DNA from: Dehalococcoidia bacterium
GTDB taxonomy: Bacteria > Chloroflexota > Dehalococcoidia > UBA2979
Length of the DNA: 64,000 nt
Reading direction: 5' to 3'
Assembly (NCBI GenBank): GCA_965219085.1
Contig: OZ244720.1
Span: 160,001-224,000, forward strand
Shown here: in pieces, positions 1-7,759 of the stretch
Layout: each line of letters begins with the position of its first letter
Numbering within the stretch: position 1 is the stretch's first letter
Notes under the pieces: generated by a model
What the model was told of the DNA's origin: nothing
The model's input: the letters and a program-made list of their open reading frames with translations, nothing else
Databases searched by the model: none
Position numbers and translations under genes: made by a program

Positions 1-405
1 GCGGCTGTGGATGACGACGGGCAGCTCGGCCTCGCGCGCGAGTTCGAGCTGGAAGCGGAACGCCTCGTACTGGATGTCCTGCGGCGACAGGTTGCGATAG
101 AAGTCGAGCCCCATCTCGCCAAGGCCGACGAAGCGCCCGCTGAGCGCCTGATCACGCAGTCGATCGCGCTCCTGCGGCAGGTCCTTCGCGCTGTGCGGGT
201 GGAGGCCGGCGACGGCGTGGATGCGCTCGTCGCGGGCGGCGACGGCGTACGCCTCCTCGCTGCTCTCGGCGCTGCCGCCGACCTCGACGACGGCGACGAG
301 GCCGGAGAGCCAGGCACGCTCCATTACCTCGTCGTAGTCATTGCGGAACGCCCGCGACCACGTGTGCGAGTGCGCGTCGACGATCGGTGCGTCGAGTGGG
401 CTCAT
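1..405 (-). CDS. tatD: TatD family deoxyribonuclease (partial, runs off the left edge)
   Basis: Minus-strand translation from ATG 405: MSPLDAPIVDAHSH...GLHPH...GEMGLDFYRNLSP...FRFQLELAREAELPVVIHSR, containing the TatD DxHxH, GxHP, GExGLD and IHSR motifs. Directly downstream of metG. Confidence 0.92.
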   Translation of the reverse strand, partial: MSPLDAPIVDAHSHTWSRAFRNDYDEVMERAWLSGLVAVVEVGGSAESSEEAYAVAARDERIHAVAGLHPHSAKDLPQERDRLRDQALSGRFVGLGEMGLDFYRNLSPQDIQYEAFRFQLELAREAELPVVIHSR

Positions 406-3030: not shown

Positions 3031-3052
3031 GTAATGCAATATGCATTACAAT
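3031..3052 (+). promoter_or_regulatory. -10 element TACAAT overlapped by an 8-bp inverted repeat (putative TA operator)
   Basis: GTAATGCA-ATA-TGCATTAC (3031-3049) overlaps TACAAT (3047-3052), which ends 6 nt before ATG 3059. Confidence 0.65.
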
Positions 3053-3058
3053 CGCAGC

Positions 3059-3334
3059 ATGCCGACGCGGGTGGCGCTCATCATCGAGGCGCGCGGCGAG
3101 CTGTTCCGCTTCTACTACGATCTGGAAGCGCCAGAAGTGCTCCACATCACGCTGCGGCACGGCGCCACGCCCCAGGACGCCATCCGCGCGTTCTTCGAAG
3201 GCGAGGGCGGATCGTGGGATGAGGCCAGGCAGCGATTCGAGACCATGAGCGAGACACACGGCCTCTACTGGACGCGCCACGCGCACGACCGCTCGGTGAT
3301 CGTAATCAGTTGCTTTGAACGGGAGAGGGAATGA
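3059..3334 (+). CDS. Putative BrnT-like toxin
   Basis: About 91 aa with HITLRHG...DAIRAFFE and C-terminal VIVISCF, loosely matching the BrnT pattern. Stop overlaps the antitoxin start. Confidence 0.55.
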   Translation: MPTRVALIIEARGELFRFYYDLEAPEVLHITLRHGATPQDAIRAFFEGEGGSWDEARQRFETMSETHGLYWTRHAHDRSVIVISCFERERE

Positions 3335-3657
3335 TGGCCAATCCACGAAAGCCCCTCGACATGAAGGTCGTCTCCGAGCGCGTCGAGGAGGACGCTCACG
3401 TTTCTGAGCTCGTCTCGCGCCTTGAGGCGGAGGCAGACCGCGAACTCGGAACAGGCAGCGTCAGCCTCCGTTGGGGCAAGGGGCAGATCGCCGTCGTCAA
3501 GCGAGCAGCCGCCATCCTCGGCGTGCCCTACCAGACCTATCTCAAGCAAGTGGTCTTCCGCCAGGCGCTCGCCGACATCGAGCAAGCCACGGCAGTGTTC
3601 GCCTCGGAGCGGCAGGAGCAGGACCCTGGCTGGCGATCCCGGTCGCGCACGAGTTGA
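3331..3657 (+). CDS. CopG/BrnA-like ribbon-helix-helix antitoxin
   Basis: SVSLRW...VVKRAAAILGVPYQTYLKQVV is typical of CopG-type antitoxins. ATGA overlap with the upstream ORF. Confidence 0.75.
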   Translation: MMANPRKPLDMKVVSERVEEDAHVSELVSRLEAEADRELGTGSVSLRWGKGQIAVVKRAAAILGVPYQTYLKQVVFRQALADIEQATAVFASERQEQDPGWRSRSRTS

Positions 3658-3812
3658 CGTGGCGCCTGCGGGCGCCCTGCAACGCCTGGTTCGCGTCTCT
3701 CCACAAGGCGCACCGGCCGCTCGCGCAGTCACACCGAGGAGGGCCGGCAGTTCACCATGACCTGCGGCTGCCCTCCGCCCGGTAGCAGGTACTGTTGATG
3801 CACTACGCAGCG

Positions 3813-3841
3813 TTGACCCTCGATCCCGCTGGTTCTACCAT
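3813..3841 (+). promoter_or_regulatory. Sigma70-type promoter of the IMPDH-family gene
   Basis: TTGACC (3813-3818), 17-nt spacer, TACCAT (3836-3841). Confidence 0.7.
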
Positions 3842-3846
3842 TCACA

Positions 3847-3950
3847 AAAGCAGGGTGACCGTGGCGGGACCCATGCGACAGCCTGGCAACCGATCGTCCC
3901 GGGGTGTATCCCGGGCCAGACCCCTCCCGAGTGGCGGGGTCTTCGTGTAT
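3847..3950 (+). ncRNA. Candidate cis-regulatory leader RNA (riboswitch-like, unclassified)
   Basis: Interrupted hairpin 3851-3885 whose loop CGGGAC is complementary to GTCCCG at 3896-3901; competing hairpin 3898-3915; terminator-like stem AGACCCC/GGGGTCT at 3918-3942. Confidence 0.55.
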
Positions 3951-4044
3951 CCGCACCCCCGGATGCCATCCCCCAGCCGCCGTCTTCGCCGCCTGACGCC
4001 GATGGACCACGTGTGATCACGACGGAAGAGGGGATCCGGAGATG

Positions 4045-5190
4045 ATGGCCGAACGCAAGAGCCTCGAGCGCGCGTGGGGGTTCGACGATGTCGCGATCGT
4101 CCCCGGCGCCGTGACCACGAACCCCGACCTCGTCGAGCCCACCTTCACGCTGGGCGAGCACACCTTCGAGTTCCCGATCCTCGCCTCGGCGATGGACGCG
4201 GTCGTCGACCCATCGTTCGCAGGCGACCTCACGCGGGCCGGCGGCCTCGCCGTCCTCAACCTCGAGGGCCTGCAGACGCGCTACGAGGACACCGCCGCCG
4301 TCCTCGACGAGATCGCCGCGGCCACCCTCGAGCACGCCACCGAGATCATCCAGCACGTCTACTCCCAGCCGATCCGCGACGACCTCGTCGGCCGGCGCGT
4401 CGAGGAGATCCGCGAGCGCGGCGGCATCGCGGCCGTCAGCGCCACTCCGGCGAACACGAAGCGCCTCGCGCCGATCGCCAGGGACGCCGGCGCGAGCTTC
4501 TTCGCCGTGCAGTCCACCGTCACCACCGCGCGCCACGTCTCGCGCTCGCTACGCGGCCTGCAGCTCGACGAACTCGTCGAGCAGATCGCGCCGCTCCCGG
4601 TGCTCGTCGGCAACACGGTCGACACCGGCGCGGCGGTGGAGCTGATGGAGACCGGCGTCCACGCCATCCTCGTCGGAGTGGGGCCGGGTGCGGCGTGCAC
4701 CTCGCGCGAGGTGCTCGGCATCGGCATCCCGCAGGTCAGCGCCACCCTCGACACCGCCTACGCGCGCGACCTGTACTACGAGCGCACGGGCCGCTACGTC
4801 CCGATCATCACGGACGGCGGCATCCGCACGGGCGGCGACCTCTCGAAGTCGATCTGCGCGGGCGCCGACGCGGTCATGATCGGCTCGCCCTTCGCGGCGA
4901 CGAAGGAGGCCCCGGGCCGCGGCTACCACTGGGGCATGGCGACGCCGCACGCGGAGCTGCCGCGCGGCGTGCGCGTCCACGTCGGCCAGCCGCGCACCCT
5001 CGACACACTGCTCTTCGGCCCGACCTCACGCACCGACGGCACCGAGAACCTCGTCGGCGCGCTCCGCACGTCGATGGCGACATGCGGCGCGTCGACGATC
5101 GCCGAGTTCCACGCGGCGCGGATGGTGATCGCCCCGTCGATCAAGACGGAGGGGAAGATCTACCAGATGGCCCAGCGGACGCCCGGGTAG
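4045..5190 (+). CDS. guaB: GuaB3-family IMP dehydrogenase-related protein (no CBS domains)
   Basis: GFDDVAIVP, ILASAMD, VGVGPGAACTSR (catalytic Cys loop), IITDGGIRTGGD, AVMIGS, HWGMA, IAPSIKTEGK. Confidence 0.92.
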   Translation: MAERKSLERAWGFDDVAIVPGAVTTNPDLVEPTFTLGEHTFEFPILASAMDAVVDPSFAGDLTRAGGLAVLNLEGLQTRYEDTAAVLDEIAAATLEHATEIIQHVYSQPIRDDLVGRRVEEIRERGGIAAVSATPANTKRLAPIARDAGASFFAVQSTVTTARHVSRSLRGLQLDELVEQIAPLPVLVGNTVDTGAAVELMETGVHAILVGVGPGAACTSREVLGIGIPQVSATLDTAYARDLYYERTGRYVPIITDGGIRTGGDLSKSICAGADAVMIGSPFAATKEAPGRGYHWGMATPHAELPRGVRVHVGQPRTLDTLLFGPTSRTDGTENLVGALRTSMATCGASTIAEFHAARMVIAPSIKTEGKIYQMAQRTPG

Positions 5191-5204
5191 GCAGGGGCAC
5201 CCTG

Positions 5205-6026
5205 GTGGCGGAAGACCGATGGCTGCCACTGAGCGTCCGGAACGATCCGGAACGTGCGAGGGCGTTTGATGTTCTTCATAAGGGTGTGCCGGACTGGCTG
5301 CGAGGCGAATTCCTTAGGTGGATCGTCGATACCAGTCACCATCCTAGCTGGCGAGACCAGATGGATTCGCGGATCCGGGAGCCGATGCAGCTTGCCCTGC
5401 GTACGGTCATCCCCTCGTACTTCAGTCAGATCTCGGTCGAGTTGTATCTCGATGTGATCGACTACCTCCTCCACCATGCACGCGTCCCTGAGTACCGCAT
5501 TGGGGATCTCGAGCGCGTACTCTCGGACGGGGGCTCGGCGTGGCGCGCGACACCCCGAGGTCTAGAAGGCCGAGTCGACGAGACGCTGCAGGGCATCGCC
5601 GAGTCGGTCTTCGCGACGGACAGCCGCCCGGCGGACTACTTGAGGAGCGCGTGGCACAAGGCGTGGGGCCGAGAGCCCGATCCCACCGGTGCCTACCGTG
5701 AGGCTGTCCGTGCCGTCGAAGCGGCCTTCGCGCCCACTGTCTCGCCGAATAATGGACGGCCGACGCTCGGTACCATCATTGCCGATATCAACAACAAGCC
5801 GTCCAAGTTCTCTGTAAGGCTTCAGGCGGACACGCCCAACGCGAACGTCGAGCGGATCGTCGGCATGCTGCGGATGCTCTGGAAGTCGCAGCTCGACCGC
5901 CATGGGACTGCGGATGAATCTGTCCCGCTCAACGTGACCCTCGACGAGGCGCGGGACGCCCTCGCGCTCGCGACCACGCTCGTGCACCTCGCGCAGCAAG
6001 GCGGTTTCTCGGCGAACGGGAACTGA
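5205..6026 (+). CDS. Hypothetical protein, possibly with an abortive-infection/HEPN-like C-terminal domain
   Basis: GTG start 14 nt after the guaB stop. C-terminus DPTGAYREAVRAVEAA...TLG...QLDRHG...EARDALALATTLV resembles Abi_C/AbiJ-like domains (recognised by eye). Confidence 0.55.
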   Translation: MAEDRWLPLSVRNDPERARAFDVLHKGVPDWLRGEFLRWIVDTSHHPSWRDQMDSRIREPMQLALRTVIPSYFSQISVELYLDVIDYLLHHARVPEYRIGDLERVLSDGGSAWRATPRGLEGRVDETLQGIAESVFATDSRPADYLRSAWHKAWGREPDPTGAYREAVRAVEAAFAPTVSPNNGRPTLGTIIADINNKPSKFSVRLQADTPNANVERIVGMLRMLWKSQLDRHGTADESVPLNVTLDEARDALALATTLVHLAQQGGFSANGN

Positions 6027-6535: not shown

Positions 6536-7759
6536 ATGGCCTTGTACCTGGGCGATGACTGGTCCGAAGACCACCACGACGTCCATCTCATGAACGACGC
6601 GGGCGAGCGGCTCGCCGCCCGGCGTCTGCCCGAAGGGGTGGAGGGCATCACTGCCCTGCACGGACTGGTCGCCGGGTACGCCTCAGGGCCGGGTGAGGTG
6701 ATCGTCGGCATCGAGACGGACCGCGGCCCCTGGGTCGCGGCACTGCTCGCGGCCGGCTACCACGTCTACGCCATCAACCCGCGCTCGGCGTCGCGTTACC
6801 GCGACCGCCACCACGTCGGCGGCGCCAAGTCCGACGCCGGCGACGCGAAGCTGCTCGCCGACCTCGTCCGCACCGACCGGCACAACCACCGGGAGGTCGC
6901 CGGCGACAGCGACGAAGCCGCCGCGGTGCGCATCCTCGCCCGCGCCCACCAGCAGTTGATCTGGGACCGCGTCCGCCAGACCAACCGGCTGCGCAACGCG
7001 CTCAGGGAGTACTTTCCGGGTGCGCTGGAGGCCTTCCCCGACCTCGCGCACGACGACGCGGTGGGCGTGCTGGCGACAGCGCCTGGCCCGCGCGAGGCGG
7101 CGCGGCTGAGCATCACCCAGATCCGCTCCGCGCTGCGCCGCGGCGGCCGCCGGCGCAACATCGAGCGGCGCGCCGCCGAGGTCCGCGACGCGCTGCGCTC
7201 ACCGCAGCTCGAGGCTCCGCCCGCGGTGAGCAAGGCATTCGCCGCGAGCACCAGTGCGGCAATGAGGGTGATCGGCGAGATCAACCGTCAGATCAAGGAG
7301 CTCGAGGCCGAGCTCGCGAGCCATTTTGAGCAGCACCCGGACGCCGGTATCTACCGTTCCCTGCCCGGTCTCGGCGTGGTCCTCGGCGCCCGGGTGCTTG
7401 GCGAGTTCGGGGATGACCCCGAACGCTACGAGTCGGCGAAGTCCCGCAGGAACTACGCCGGCACGTCGCCGCTGACGGTAGCATCCGGCCGCAAGCACAC
7501 CGTGAAAGCCCGCTTCGTCCGCAACCGGCGCCTCTACGACGCAGTCGACCAGTGGGCGCTGTGCTCCCTGCAGGCCAGCCCCGGCTGCCGCGAGTTCTAC
7601 GATCGGCGGCGCGCCGCGGGCGACCTCCACCACCAGGCGCTCCGCGCCCTCGGCAACCGTCTCGTCGGCTACCTACATGGCTGCCTGAAGCGCCGCTTGC
7701 CCTACGACGAGACGACCGCCTGGGGACACCGTTACACCCACGAGGACCTCGCTGCTTGA
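6536..7759 (+). CDS. IS110-family recombinase (DEDD RuvC-like plus Tnp domain)
   Basis: GDDWSEDHHD, GIETD, AINP, AKSDAGDA, SLPGLG, YAGTSP-x-ASG, ALRALGNRL. Confidence 0.96.
   Translation: MALYLGDDWSEDHHDVHLMNDAGERLAARRLPEGVEGITALHGLVAGYASGPGEVIVGIETDRGPWVAALLAAGYHVYAINPRSASRYRDRHHVGGAKSDAGDAKLLADLVRTDRHNHREVAGDSDEAAAVRILARAHQQLIWDRVRQTNRLRNALREYFPGALEAFPDLAHDDAVGVLATAPGPREAARLSITQIRSALRRGGRRRNIERRAAEVRDALRSPQLEAPPAVSKAFAASTSAAMRVIGEINRQIKELEAELASHFEQHPDAGIYRSLPGLGVVLGARVLGEFGDDPERYESAKSRRNYAGTSPLTVASGRKHTVKARFVRNRRLYDAVDQWALCSLQASPGCREFYDRRRAAGDLHHQALRALGNRLVGYLHGCLKRRLPYDETTAWGHRYTHEDLAA

Follow-up and report, generated by a model that had tools for sequence, protein, structure and literature searches.

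A conserved, unclassified leader with its own promoter and terminator-type hairpin precedes guaB3 in Dehalococcoidia and may act as a translation-coupled attenuator

Introduction

Inosine monophosphate (IMP) dehydrogenase (IMPDH) is the committed step to guanine nucleotides, and most bacteria tune it allosterically through a CBS/Bateman domain. In E. coli, the pyrBI and pyrE attenuators rely on nucleoside triphosphate (NTP)-sensitive coupling of a leader-translating ribosome to RNA polymerase. To our knowledge, almost nothing is known about RNA-level regulation in the Chloroflexota. Here we describe the leader of guaB3, a gene for an IMPDH without a CBS domain, in a 64,000-nucleotide (nt) stretch of a Dehalococcoidia bacterium (GTDB lineage Chloroflexota; Dehalococcoidia; UBA2979), comprising positions 160,001 to 224,000 of the forward strand of contig OZ244720.1 (GenBank assembly GCA_965219085.1); this whole stretch is called the window, and coordinates are those of the window. 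Two published accounts describe GuaB3-type enzymes as lacking the CBS/Bateman domain (PMC13273366, PMC9790621), one presenting GuaB3 of Synechococcus elongatus as an essential IMPDH without a Bateman domain (PMC13273366) and the other giving the role of mycobacterial GuaB3 as unknown and its gene as lying in an operon with guaB2 (PMC9790621). No description of a leader such as the one reported here was found in the literature on guaB3, on guaB leader-peptide attenuation or on Chloroflexi riboswitches associated with IMPDH.

The closest described systems each share part of this arrangement. Like pyrBI and pyrE, the guaB3 leader has a candidate open reading frame (ORF) without regulatory codons that reaches or spans a putative intrinsic terminator before a nucleotide-biosynthesis gene, with no antiterminator helix needed, and in most genera studied here a hairpin followed by a nucleotide-biased tract precedes the terminator. 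Unlike in those systems, the tract is alternating pyrimidine-G (Y-G) rather than a U-run, it is missing between the corresponding hairpin (H2) and the terminator in the window's own genus, and the proposed likeness concerns the GMP pathway of a Chloroflexota lineage. In the trp, his, leu and ilv attenuators, too, the leader of a biosynthetic gene carries a short ORF with its own Shine-Dalgarno (SD) sequence, followed by a terminator; by contrast, no runs of regulatory codons were found in the guaB3 leader peptides, the peptides are unrelated between clades, no conserved 2:3 antiterminator was found, and the ORF ends at, in or beyond the terminator instead of before segment 2. The purine-pathway riboswitches in Rfam (purine/guanine, ZTP, PRPP and ppGpp ykkC subtypes, xanthine/NMT1 and 2'-dG) likewise lie upstream of purine genes on a terminator-type platform, but none matches the leader strand at E ≤ 10 and the guaB3 leaders have no conserved aptamer core. 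Cyanobacterial GuaB3 (Synechococcus) is homologous as a protein and apparently also the sole IMPDH, a likeness of the gene and not of the RNA; the available part of its account describes no comparable leader (PMC13273366).

Our analyses confirm that guaB3 is preceded by a real and conserved cis-leader of no known class, which has a promoter of its own and a hairpin of terminator type, and judged by its conservation this element is functional. Our preferred reading, held tentatively and at a little under an even chance, is that the leader may attenuate transcription in a way that depends on translation of a short ORF within it. If this is true, these uncultured Dehalococcoidia have, family-wide, moved control of IMPDH out of the protein and into the mRNA leader, and if the coupling holds, the guanine pathway would have its own equivalent of the pyrBI/pyrE attenuators of the pyrimidine pathway.

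Results

The guaB3 leader is conserved within the genus and matches no known RNA family

The promoter (3813-3841, + strand) consists of a -35 box TTGACC (3813-3818) and a -10 box TACCAT (3836-3841) separated by a 17-nt spacer, and is the only promoter-like site of its kind between 3300 and 4300, where shuffled sequences give 0.1. Transcription would start at about 3847-3849, in an A-run, and with the guaB3 ATG at 4042 the leader measures ~194 nt, so that the promoter and the leader of about 195 nt proposed in an initial annotation of this DNA, which had been made without database searches, are upheld. The gene itself (4042-5190, +) encodes an IMPDH without a CBS domain: the Pfam IMPDH model matches at 2.3e-46, the GuaB3 family TIGR01304 scores 391.1 bits against a cut-off of 342.1, and a Pfam scan of the product returned the IMPDH barrel only, with no CBS domain. 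Residues 5-379 align with PDB entries 8p4q/8p37 ('IMP dehydrogenase subunit', E = 1.8e-115), and the GPGAACTSR loop is retained. It is the sole PF00478 match above cut-off in the window's genome (92.7% complete), and it stands alone with its own promoter, unlike the mycobacterial operon.

The promoter, a ~45-nt 5' domain, a covarying hairpin and a terminator-like hairpin are found upstream of guaB3 in 17/18 genomes of the genus. The window can be aligned, from its -35 box through the tail of the terminator, with sixteen other full same-genus leaders and with a partial one (L004, which ends before reaching the promoter), and both promoter hexamers are kept in 16/16 same-genus loci that extend far enough upstream (17 counting the window); the genes upstream of the promoter vary among these genomes. 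Conservation was scaled as mean pairwise identity among the 17 same-genus leaders relative to four-fold degenerate sites of guaB3, which gave 0.75. On this scale, the 5' domain (0.94-0.96) and the terminator with its tail (0.93) lie well above the reference, and the linker plus hairpin H2 lies at 0.73-0.76. H2 itself (CCCGGG-GUGUAU-CCCGGG; 3898-3915, +) shows compensatory changes in the genus, with C-G in 6, U-G in 6 and U-A in 5 sequences at alignment columns 65/79, and C-G in 11 and G-C in 2 sequences at columns 66/78.

A covariance model built from the genus alignment found exactly one match per genome in 17/18 genus genomes, always at guaB3; in the 18th, guaB3 is truncated by a contig end. 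The nhmmer search likewise found a single copy in the window's genome. The model recovered no leaders of other genera and no second copy, and its two weak matches elsewhere (E = 8e-4 and 3e-3) were rejected as false, one lying inside a coding region and the other at the 3' terminator of a gene. Against the 4227 Rfam models, nothing in 3813-4044 reached gathering thresholds, and at E ≤ 10 there was no match on the leader strand and three weak matches on the opposite strand, the best being AdoCbl-II overlapping the promoter (16.3 bits against a cut-off of 36.5, E = 0.8). Twenty diverse family leaders gave nothing credible (a single microRNA match at E = 0.074 was noise), nor did 20 guaB3 loci of other Dehalococcoidia families (~2.5 kb each, with 700 nt upstream). 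No known riboswitch family matches, which bears out the view in the initial annotation that the leader fits none of the guanine, ZTP and PRPP riboswitch consensus sequences. The predicted fold of 3845-4050 (-82.7 kcal/mol) is no more stable than shuffled sequences (mean -86.2 kcal/mol, z = +0.72, 158/200 shuffles at least as stable), so it is conservation and not thermodynamics that sets the leader beyond chance.

Three sequencing runs of unrecorded kind, available as contigs, have contig breaks at the edge of the conserved 5' domain (3851-3863) and a summed depth that doubles over 3844-3904. Both are expected if co-occurring relatives share the invariant stretch of the 5' domain.

Related leaders with shared modules occur across the family

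guaB3 was present in 41/41 relatives and in 92/99 family genomes at E ≤ 1e-100. Among the 84 family loci, which include upstream regions from 60 further family genomes, 71 have a recognisably related leader, and a promoter of the form TTGAC[N]-16..18-(T/G/C)AnnnT was found in 74. The conservation among orthologous leaders on which the initial annotation had staked its proposal thus extends well beyond the genus. The ten loci without this promoter are L004, which meets a contig end, L031, L035 and L057 of a neighbouring genus, and L085-L090, six low-GC, small-genome members in which no comparable leader was seen.

These leaders have a set of modules in common. Besides the promoter, they comprise a start region that commonly reads GGAAAUC, a run rich in purines or G that is frequently GGCGGGG, and an AUG, together with a hairpin that has a clade-specific stem and is followed by an alternating (YG)n tract, and a strong hairpin built on CCCC(C)UC/GAGGGG(G) with a YGCGUU tail. 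The (YG)n tract is enriched, with a mean longest run of 6.92 compared with 4.99 ± 0.40 in the genome background (0/2000 background sets reach 6.92). It ends 8-13 nt before the terminator C-run in 15/25 leader clusters (clustering is described below), and in all 21 clusters that have the tract a hairpin directly precedes it, with stem sequences that are unrelated. On inference only, this hairpin and tract could form a GTP-sensitive pause module.

The module does not extend to guaA. In the window's own genome, guaA (~3010294, - strand) has a TTGACC...TACGAT promoter and a plain leader of ~35 nt, in which no ORF-plus-terminator module was found; a regulon shared with guaA was rejected on account of this short, plain leader, and the putative attenuator is thus specific to guaB3. 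Leaders of other Dehalococcoidia families differ again, and guaB3 seems repeatedly to carry lineage-specific long leaders. Four loci of other families (L110, L113, L121 and L136) share a different leader ~100-250 nt upstream of guaB3, with GGGCGTATACT...GAAT... followed by GCGG(C/A)(G/A)AATTCGTAA and, in two of them, a later CGGCTTGTAACCGATGTGAGGAG; this type gave no Rfam match at E ≤ 0.1. In the genus nearest to the window's, L031 and L035 have a longer leader with no TTGAC -35 box by regular expression and with two terminators, a hairpin GGGACCCC...GGUGGGGUCC with the same UCGUGUAUCUG tail and then a second, canonical terminator GGCCCCCGCCAGCGGGGGCC with a U-rich tail before the SD sequence.

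The family-wide constant of the 5' domain is a translation start

The conserved 5' domain (3845-3890, +) can fold in two ways. The interrupted hairpin at 3851-3885 described in the initial annotation is present and is also part of the minimum-free-energy fold; an alternative helix, GCAGGGU/ACCC-A-UGC, pairs 3850-3856 with 3869-3876. Within the genus the domain is nearly invariant, including positions predicted to be unpaired, and the sole compensatory change, U3856-A3869 to C-G in L018, favours the alternative helix over the hairpin. Across genera, no common 5'-domain fold was found, and clade-wise consensus folds differ: in some clades a C/U-rich strand pairs with the SD-like run (in several this is the only structure), and in others the run lies in a hairpin loop abutting the AUG. 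The 5' domains of 25 leader clusters are as stable as their shuffles (mean z 0.03; 0/25 below -2), and a family-wide closing helix, P1, tested by own-strand duplex energies relative to strands from other leaders, was not significant (P = 0.21). A riboswitch aptamer is expected to keep one core across genera. Since the SD-like run and the AUG are kept where no common fold exists, the family-wide constant is a translation start, not an aptamer.

A start codon lies 31-64 nt after the -10 box in 71/74 promoter-bearing family leaders (68 ATG and 3 GTG); of the three exceptions, L024 and L084 also lack a terminator and L037 has no obvious start. In the window, the AUG at 3873 opens a candidate leader ORF (uORF; 3873-4016, +) of 47 codons that ends with UGA (4014-4016), spans H2 and the terminator-like hairpin, and stops 25 nt short of the guaB3 AUG. 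Upstream of it, the SD-like run GGCGGGA (3863-3869, +) has a predicted duplex energy of -5.3 kcal/mol with the 3' end of the genome's own 16S rRNA (GGAUCACCUCCUUUCU). The 71 leaders were clustered at 70% identity into 25 clusters, in 20 of which the anti-SD sequence pairs at ≤ -5.0 kcal/mol with the 18 nt that precede the start, compared with 33% of random genome 18-mers (binomial P = 2e-6, which is overstated, the clusters being related). Clades without GGCGGGG have GAGG, AGGG or GGUGAG 5-8 nt before the AUG.

The AUG frame is also distinguished from its alternatives by where it ends. In all 25 clusters it comes no more than 26 nt short of the terminator without meeting a stop, as do the +1 frame in 11 and the +2 frame in 23. 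Its first stop lies in the terminator or in the 26 nt preceding it in 13 clusters, compared with 1 and 2 for the +1 and +2 frames; this interval was chosen after inspection of the data. Within clades, the ORF keeps a constant, gap-free length despite heavy sequence change: 78 nt in 7/7, 51 nt in 7/7 (with a UAG-to-UAA swap), 63 nt in 5/5 and 60 nt in 3/3 leaders. The encoded peptides differ freely within this constant length.

The hairpin downstream of the leader ORF resembles an intrinsic terminator

The terminator-like hairpin AGACCCC-U-CC/GG-C-GGGGUCU (3918-3953, +) has its stem at 3918-3942, as the initial annotation had it, directly followed by UUCGUGUAU, and its tail reads UUCGUGUAUCC. 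Other strong hairpins with U-rich tails in the window's genome carry tails such as TTCGTGTATCCC and TTTGCGTGTGCC, and because the leader tail is of the same kind the hairpin looks like a normal intrinsic terminator of this organism. Three base-pair layers outside its C/G core covary across the family. In an anchored count, the first layer is A-U in 53, G-C in 10, G-U in 4 and U-G in 2 leaders (paired in 69/70), the second is G-C in 33, A-U in 24, G-U in 9 and C-G in 3 (paired in 69/70), and the third is paired in 57/70. The anchored count was used in place of MAFFT/RNAalifold on 65 terminator segments, which misaligned the C-run register and left only four invariant pairs. A dispersed repeat was rejected as the source of the hairpin: CCCCTC..GAGGGG hairpins occur at only 8 loci of the genome (16 counting both strands), compared with 2 and 2 for controls. 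In many genera, the terminator ends ~20-35 nt before the guaB3 start (judged by eye from printed leaders, the distance not having been computed), which leaves no room for a second promoter, so that guaB3 would be transcribed through the hairpin.

Further downstream, a C-rich segment AUCCCCC (3968-3974, +) is a candidate anti-SD sequence for the guaB3 ribosome-binding region GGAAGAGGGGAUCCGGAG (4024-4041, +), which is kept in the genus; it is complementary to GGGGAU at 4030-4035. In relatives, as judged by eye, CCUCUUCC stands opposite GGAAGAGG, and C(C/U)CUCCCC opposite GGGGAGGG. A small hairpin CGUG-UGAU-CACG (4010-4021, +) just upstream of the guaB3 SD sequence holds the uORF stop codon, and in relatives its position is occupied by GGUCAC/GUGACC or GGUCGG/CCGACC, a helix-level compensation also judged by eye.

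Leader translation may be coupled to read-through into guaB3

These conserved parts can be assembled into a model in which the sigma-70-type promoter at 3813-3841 would start the RNA at about 3848, and the SD-like run at 3863-3869 with the AUG at 3873, within the 5' hairpin, would open a leader ORF whose peptide sequence is immaterial. This ORF runs through H2 (3898-3915) and the putative intrinsic terminator (3918-3953). With the first ribosome close behind RNA polymerase, the terminator hairpin would be blocked and transcription would read through into guaB3; with the ribosome absent or lagging, the terminator would form and the transcript would end at about 3945-3953. The same ribosome would, in the window's genus, additionally disrupt the candidate anti-SD/SD pairing just before guaB3, and it might unmask the guaB3 ribosome-binding site because the uORF passes the C-rich segment at 3968-3974 and ends in the small hairpin before the gene. 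Translation of the uORF, termination at the hairpin and the coupling that decides read-through are all inferred from these sequence features.

The model is the simplest that uses all of the conserved parts. It agrees with what a study in E. coli reports, namely that terminators a few base pairs past a stop codon are repressed by the ribosome and those in the first 100 base pairs of an ORF still work (PMC4824070). As to the signal, we suggest with low confidence that it could be the supply of guanine nucleotides, with an effect on how fast the polymerase moves or pauses, on initiation or on both, given that guaB3 is the sole IMPDH gene, that its product has no allosteric Bateman domain and that a (YG)n tract precedes the terminator in most genera.

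Several observations weigh against this model. Regarding translation initiation, the SD sequence is weak in one clade (-2.5 to -3.4 kcal/mol), the SD-AUG spacing in the window's genus is short (GGCGGGA-CCC-AUG), and the leader AUG is paired in both predicted folds (P = 0.96). Regarding the frame, the ORF reads through the terminator in 12/25 clusters, and the constant ORF length could reflect a spacing constraint on the RNA. A coding signal is absent from the uORF, with variable columns spread flatly over codon positions; this is expected for a purely regulatory ORF, though it is not positive evidence for one. Members of the window's own genus do not hold strictly to the frame: L001 and L007 are one 1-nt indel apart, L005 and L012 are frameshifted, and in three members the stop comes shortly past the terminator. 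All three possible frames are largely open in this genus, which makes openness uninformative there. Regarding termination, a simple consensus scan called no terminator at the leader hairpin, and no conserved mutually exclusive terminator/antiterminator pairing was found in the family leaders. One metatranscriptome (query-word share 0.05; contigs) covers conserved parts of ORFs of relatives at 90-95% identity and none of 3600-4209, and is thus uninformative on expression, starts and ends. Together with the post hoc choice of the stop interval, these points keep the model tentative. Finally, the near-total invariance of the 5' domain in the genus exceeds what an SD sequence and an AUG require, which leaves room for a small aptamer or a protein site, as does the near-repeat of GUGGCGGGACC in GUGGCGGGGUC described below.

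Competing explanations are considered less probable

The rival that survives best, though we consider it unlikely, is a structured 5' untranslated region (UTR) without a sensor, in which a leaky terminator or stabilising structures would set a fixed low expression and the AUG frame would be incidental or weakly translated. It would explain folds no more stable than shuffles, the lack of any conserved alternative structure and the unconserved peptide, and long open frames are expected in GC-rich DNA. It does not sit easily with the strong purifying selection on the 5' domain and terminator, and the SD and AUG enrichment and the in-frame stops at the terminator are hard to explain if the frame has no function. 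If the leader is merely such a UTR, the finding is an ordinary one.

Somewhat less probable is a protein-mediated attenuator, in which an RNA-binding protein would bind a G-rich motif in the manner of PyrR or TRAP and set the terminator or the translation of the leader ORF. What might suggest it is that GUGGCGGGACC (3860-3870), which contains the SD-like run, recurs almost exactly as the 3' arm of the terminator, GUGGCGGGGUC (3931-3941), and that two other lineages (L043 and L082) likewise have one GGCGGG ahead of the AUG and another in the 3' arm, where an internal mismatch is retained at the same position, as judged by eye. A 5' domain that is invariant within a genus and divergent between genera would also fit co-evolution with a protein. 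Yet no candidate protein was identified, the repeated motif is missing from many clades, and G-rich repeats are common in a GC-rich genome.

A metabolite riboswitch of a new class is more doubtful still. Here a purine or guanine nucleotide would be bound by the 5' domain (3846-3890), acting as a small aptamer that directly controls the terminator or gates translation of the leader ORF. The position before the sole IMPDH gene with a terminator downstream, and the invariance of the 5' domain in the genus, including predicted unpaired positions, would suit such an element, which, matching no Rfam family, would be new. The initial annotation had gone further and proposed a new riboswitch class with a pseudoknot and a switch, a proposal that our results do not sustain: no conserved aptamer core, pseudoknot or mutually exclusive pairing was found. 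The loop CGGGAC (3865-3870) is indeed complementary to GUCCCG (3896-3901), but the pairing is not conserved. In the 17 genus sequences the loop is invariant and its partner drifts (GUCCCG, AGCCCC, CCCCCG, GGCCUC and GACCUC), so that pairing is possible in only 72.5% of cells; of the six pairs, two are disrupted in most sequences (C3865-G3901 is paired in 6/17 and A3869-U3897 in 3/17), and no compensatory change occurs; the covariation predicted for this pairing is thus lacking. The alternative partner for the 5' arm of the terminator, GGGGUGU (3901-3907), exists in the window but is GGGCGCA in most relatives, and the hairpin CCCGGG/CCCGGG (3898-3915), real as it is, does not compete with the terminator, the two being adjacent and able to form together. 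Pairing of the SD-like run with the 5' arm of the terminator as an antiterminator would comprise only 4-6 pairs and is not general. A riboswitch would also have to be reconciled with clade folds that differ, several of them only a C/U-rich strand pairing with the SD sequence, with a 5' domain no more stable than shuffles and a closing helix that was not significant, and with a single copy serving a single gene, the guaA leader being short and plain, whereas the SD sequence and AUG account for the family-wide constants.

A narrower form of this idea, which we regard as slightly more doubtful again, is that the invariant 45-nt 5' domain (3846-3890) is a tiny aptamer of a new class for a guanine nucleotide (GTP, ppGpp or a GMP precursor) that exposes or hides the SD sequence and AUG of the leader ORF. 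If true, it would be a riboswitch acting through a translating ribosome on a terminator, and would supply the feedback control that the Bateman-less IMPDH protein lacks.

An independent small RNA (sRNA) of ~100 nt (3848-3950), acting in trans through its C-rich terminator loop CCCCUCCC, which could pair with SD sequences, is very improbable even though the promoter, ~100 nt of RNA and the terminator would make a self-contained unit, for the element is always linked to guaB3 and in many genera the guaB3 ribosome-binding site follows directly on the terminator (by eye), leaving no room for another promoter, so that the transcript is also the guaB3 leader. The remaining probability belongs to something else.

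Neighbouring genes and further observations

The first transcribed bases (window 3846-3852) are conserved, reading CAAAAGC in the window, GGAAAUC in many genera and in two loci of other families (L025 and L028), and CCGAACAU in one genus; they may belong to a 5'-terminal helix, a protein site or a signal for the start site. Near the start site of some genera lies CCGAAC, a candidate PurBox-like motif; reiterative transcription at the A-run and G-quadruplexes are further conceivable features of the leader. At several loci (L019, L021, L022, L032, L037, L038 and others), a divergent gene lies ~150-250 nt upstream of the guaB3 promoter, with 5-12 nt between its start (CAT) and a conserved ATCGTAGCA motif. 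The opposite strand of this motif reads TGCTACGAT, by eye a box of the -10 type placed just ahead of the start codon, and suggests that the mRNA of the divergent gene may be leaderless.

Both flanks of guaB3 in the window look like accessory DNA. Upstream, two overlapping small ORFs (3041-3334 and 3331-3657, +; 97 and 108 amino acids) separate a family-2 glycosyltransferase gene from the guaB3 promoter, and the pair looks inserted, since in several same-genus genomes the promoter follows directly on the end of the glycosyltransferase gene. The second has a weak match to a CopG antitoxin (E = 0.0064, below cut-off), and the two may be a toxin-antitoxin pair. Directly after guaB3, an ORF of ~278 codons (5190-6026, +) with no Pfam match at E ≤ 1 sits between guaB3 and an IS110 element, whose transposase gene (6536-7759, +) matches Pfam DEDD_Tnp_IS110 and Transposase_20. 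The window's single Rfam match at gathering threshold, 'Actinobacteria sRNA Ms_AS-4' (63.9 bits; 7360-7441, - strand), lies antisense inside this IS110-family transposase gene and, the host genome being that of a member of the Dehalococcoidia, most likely reflects conservation of the insertion sequence (IS) element, not an actinobacterial sRNA.

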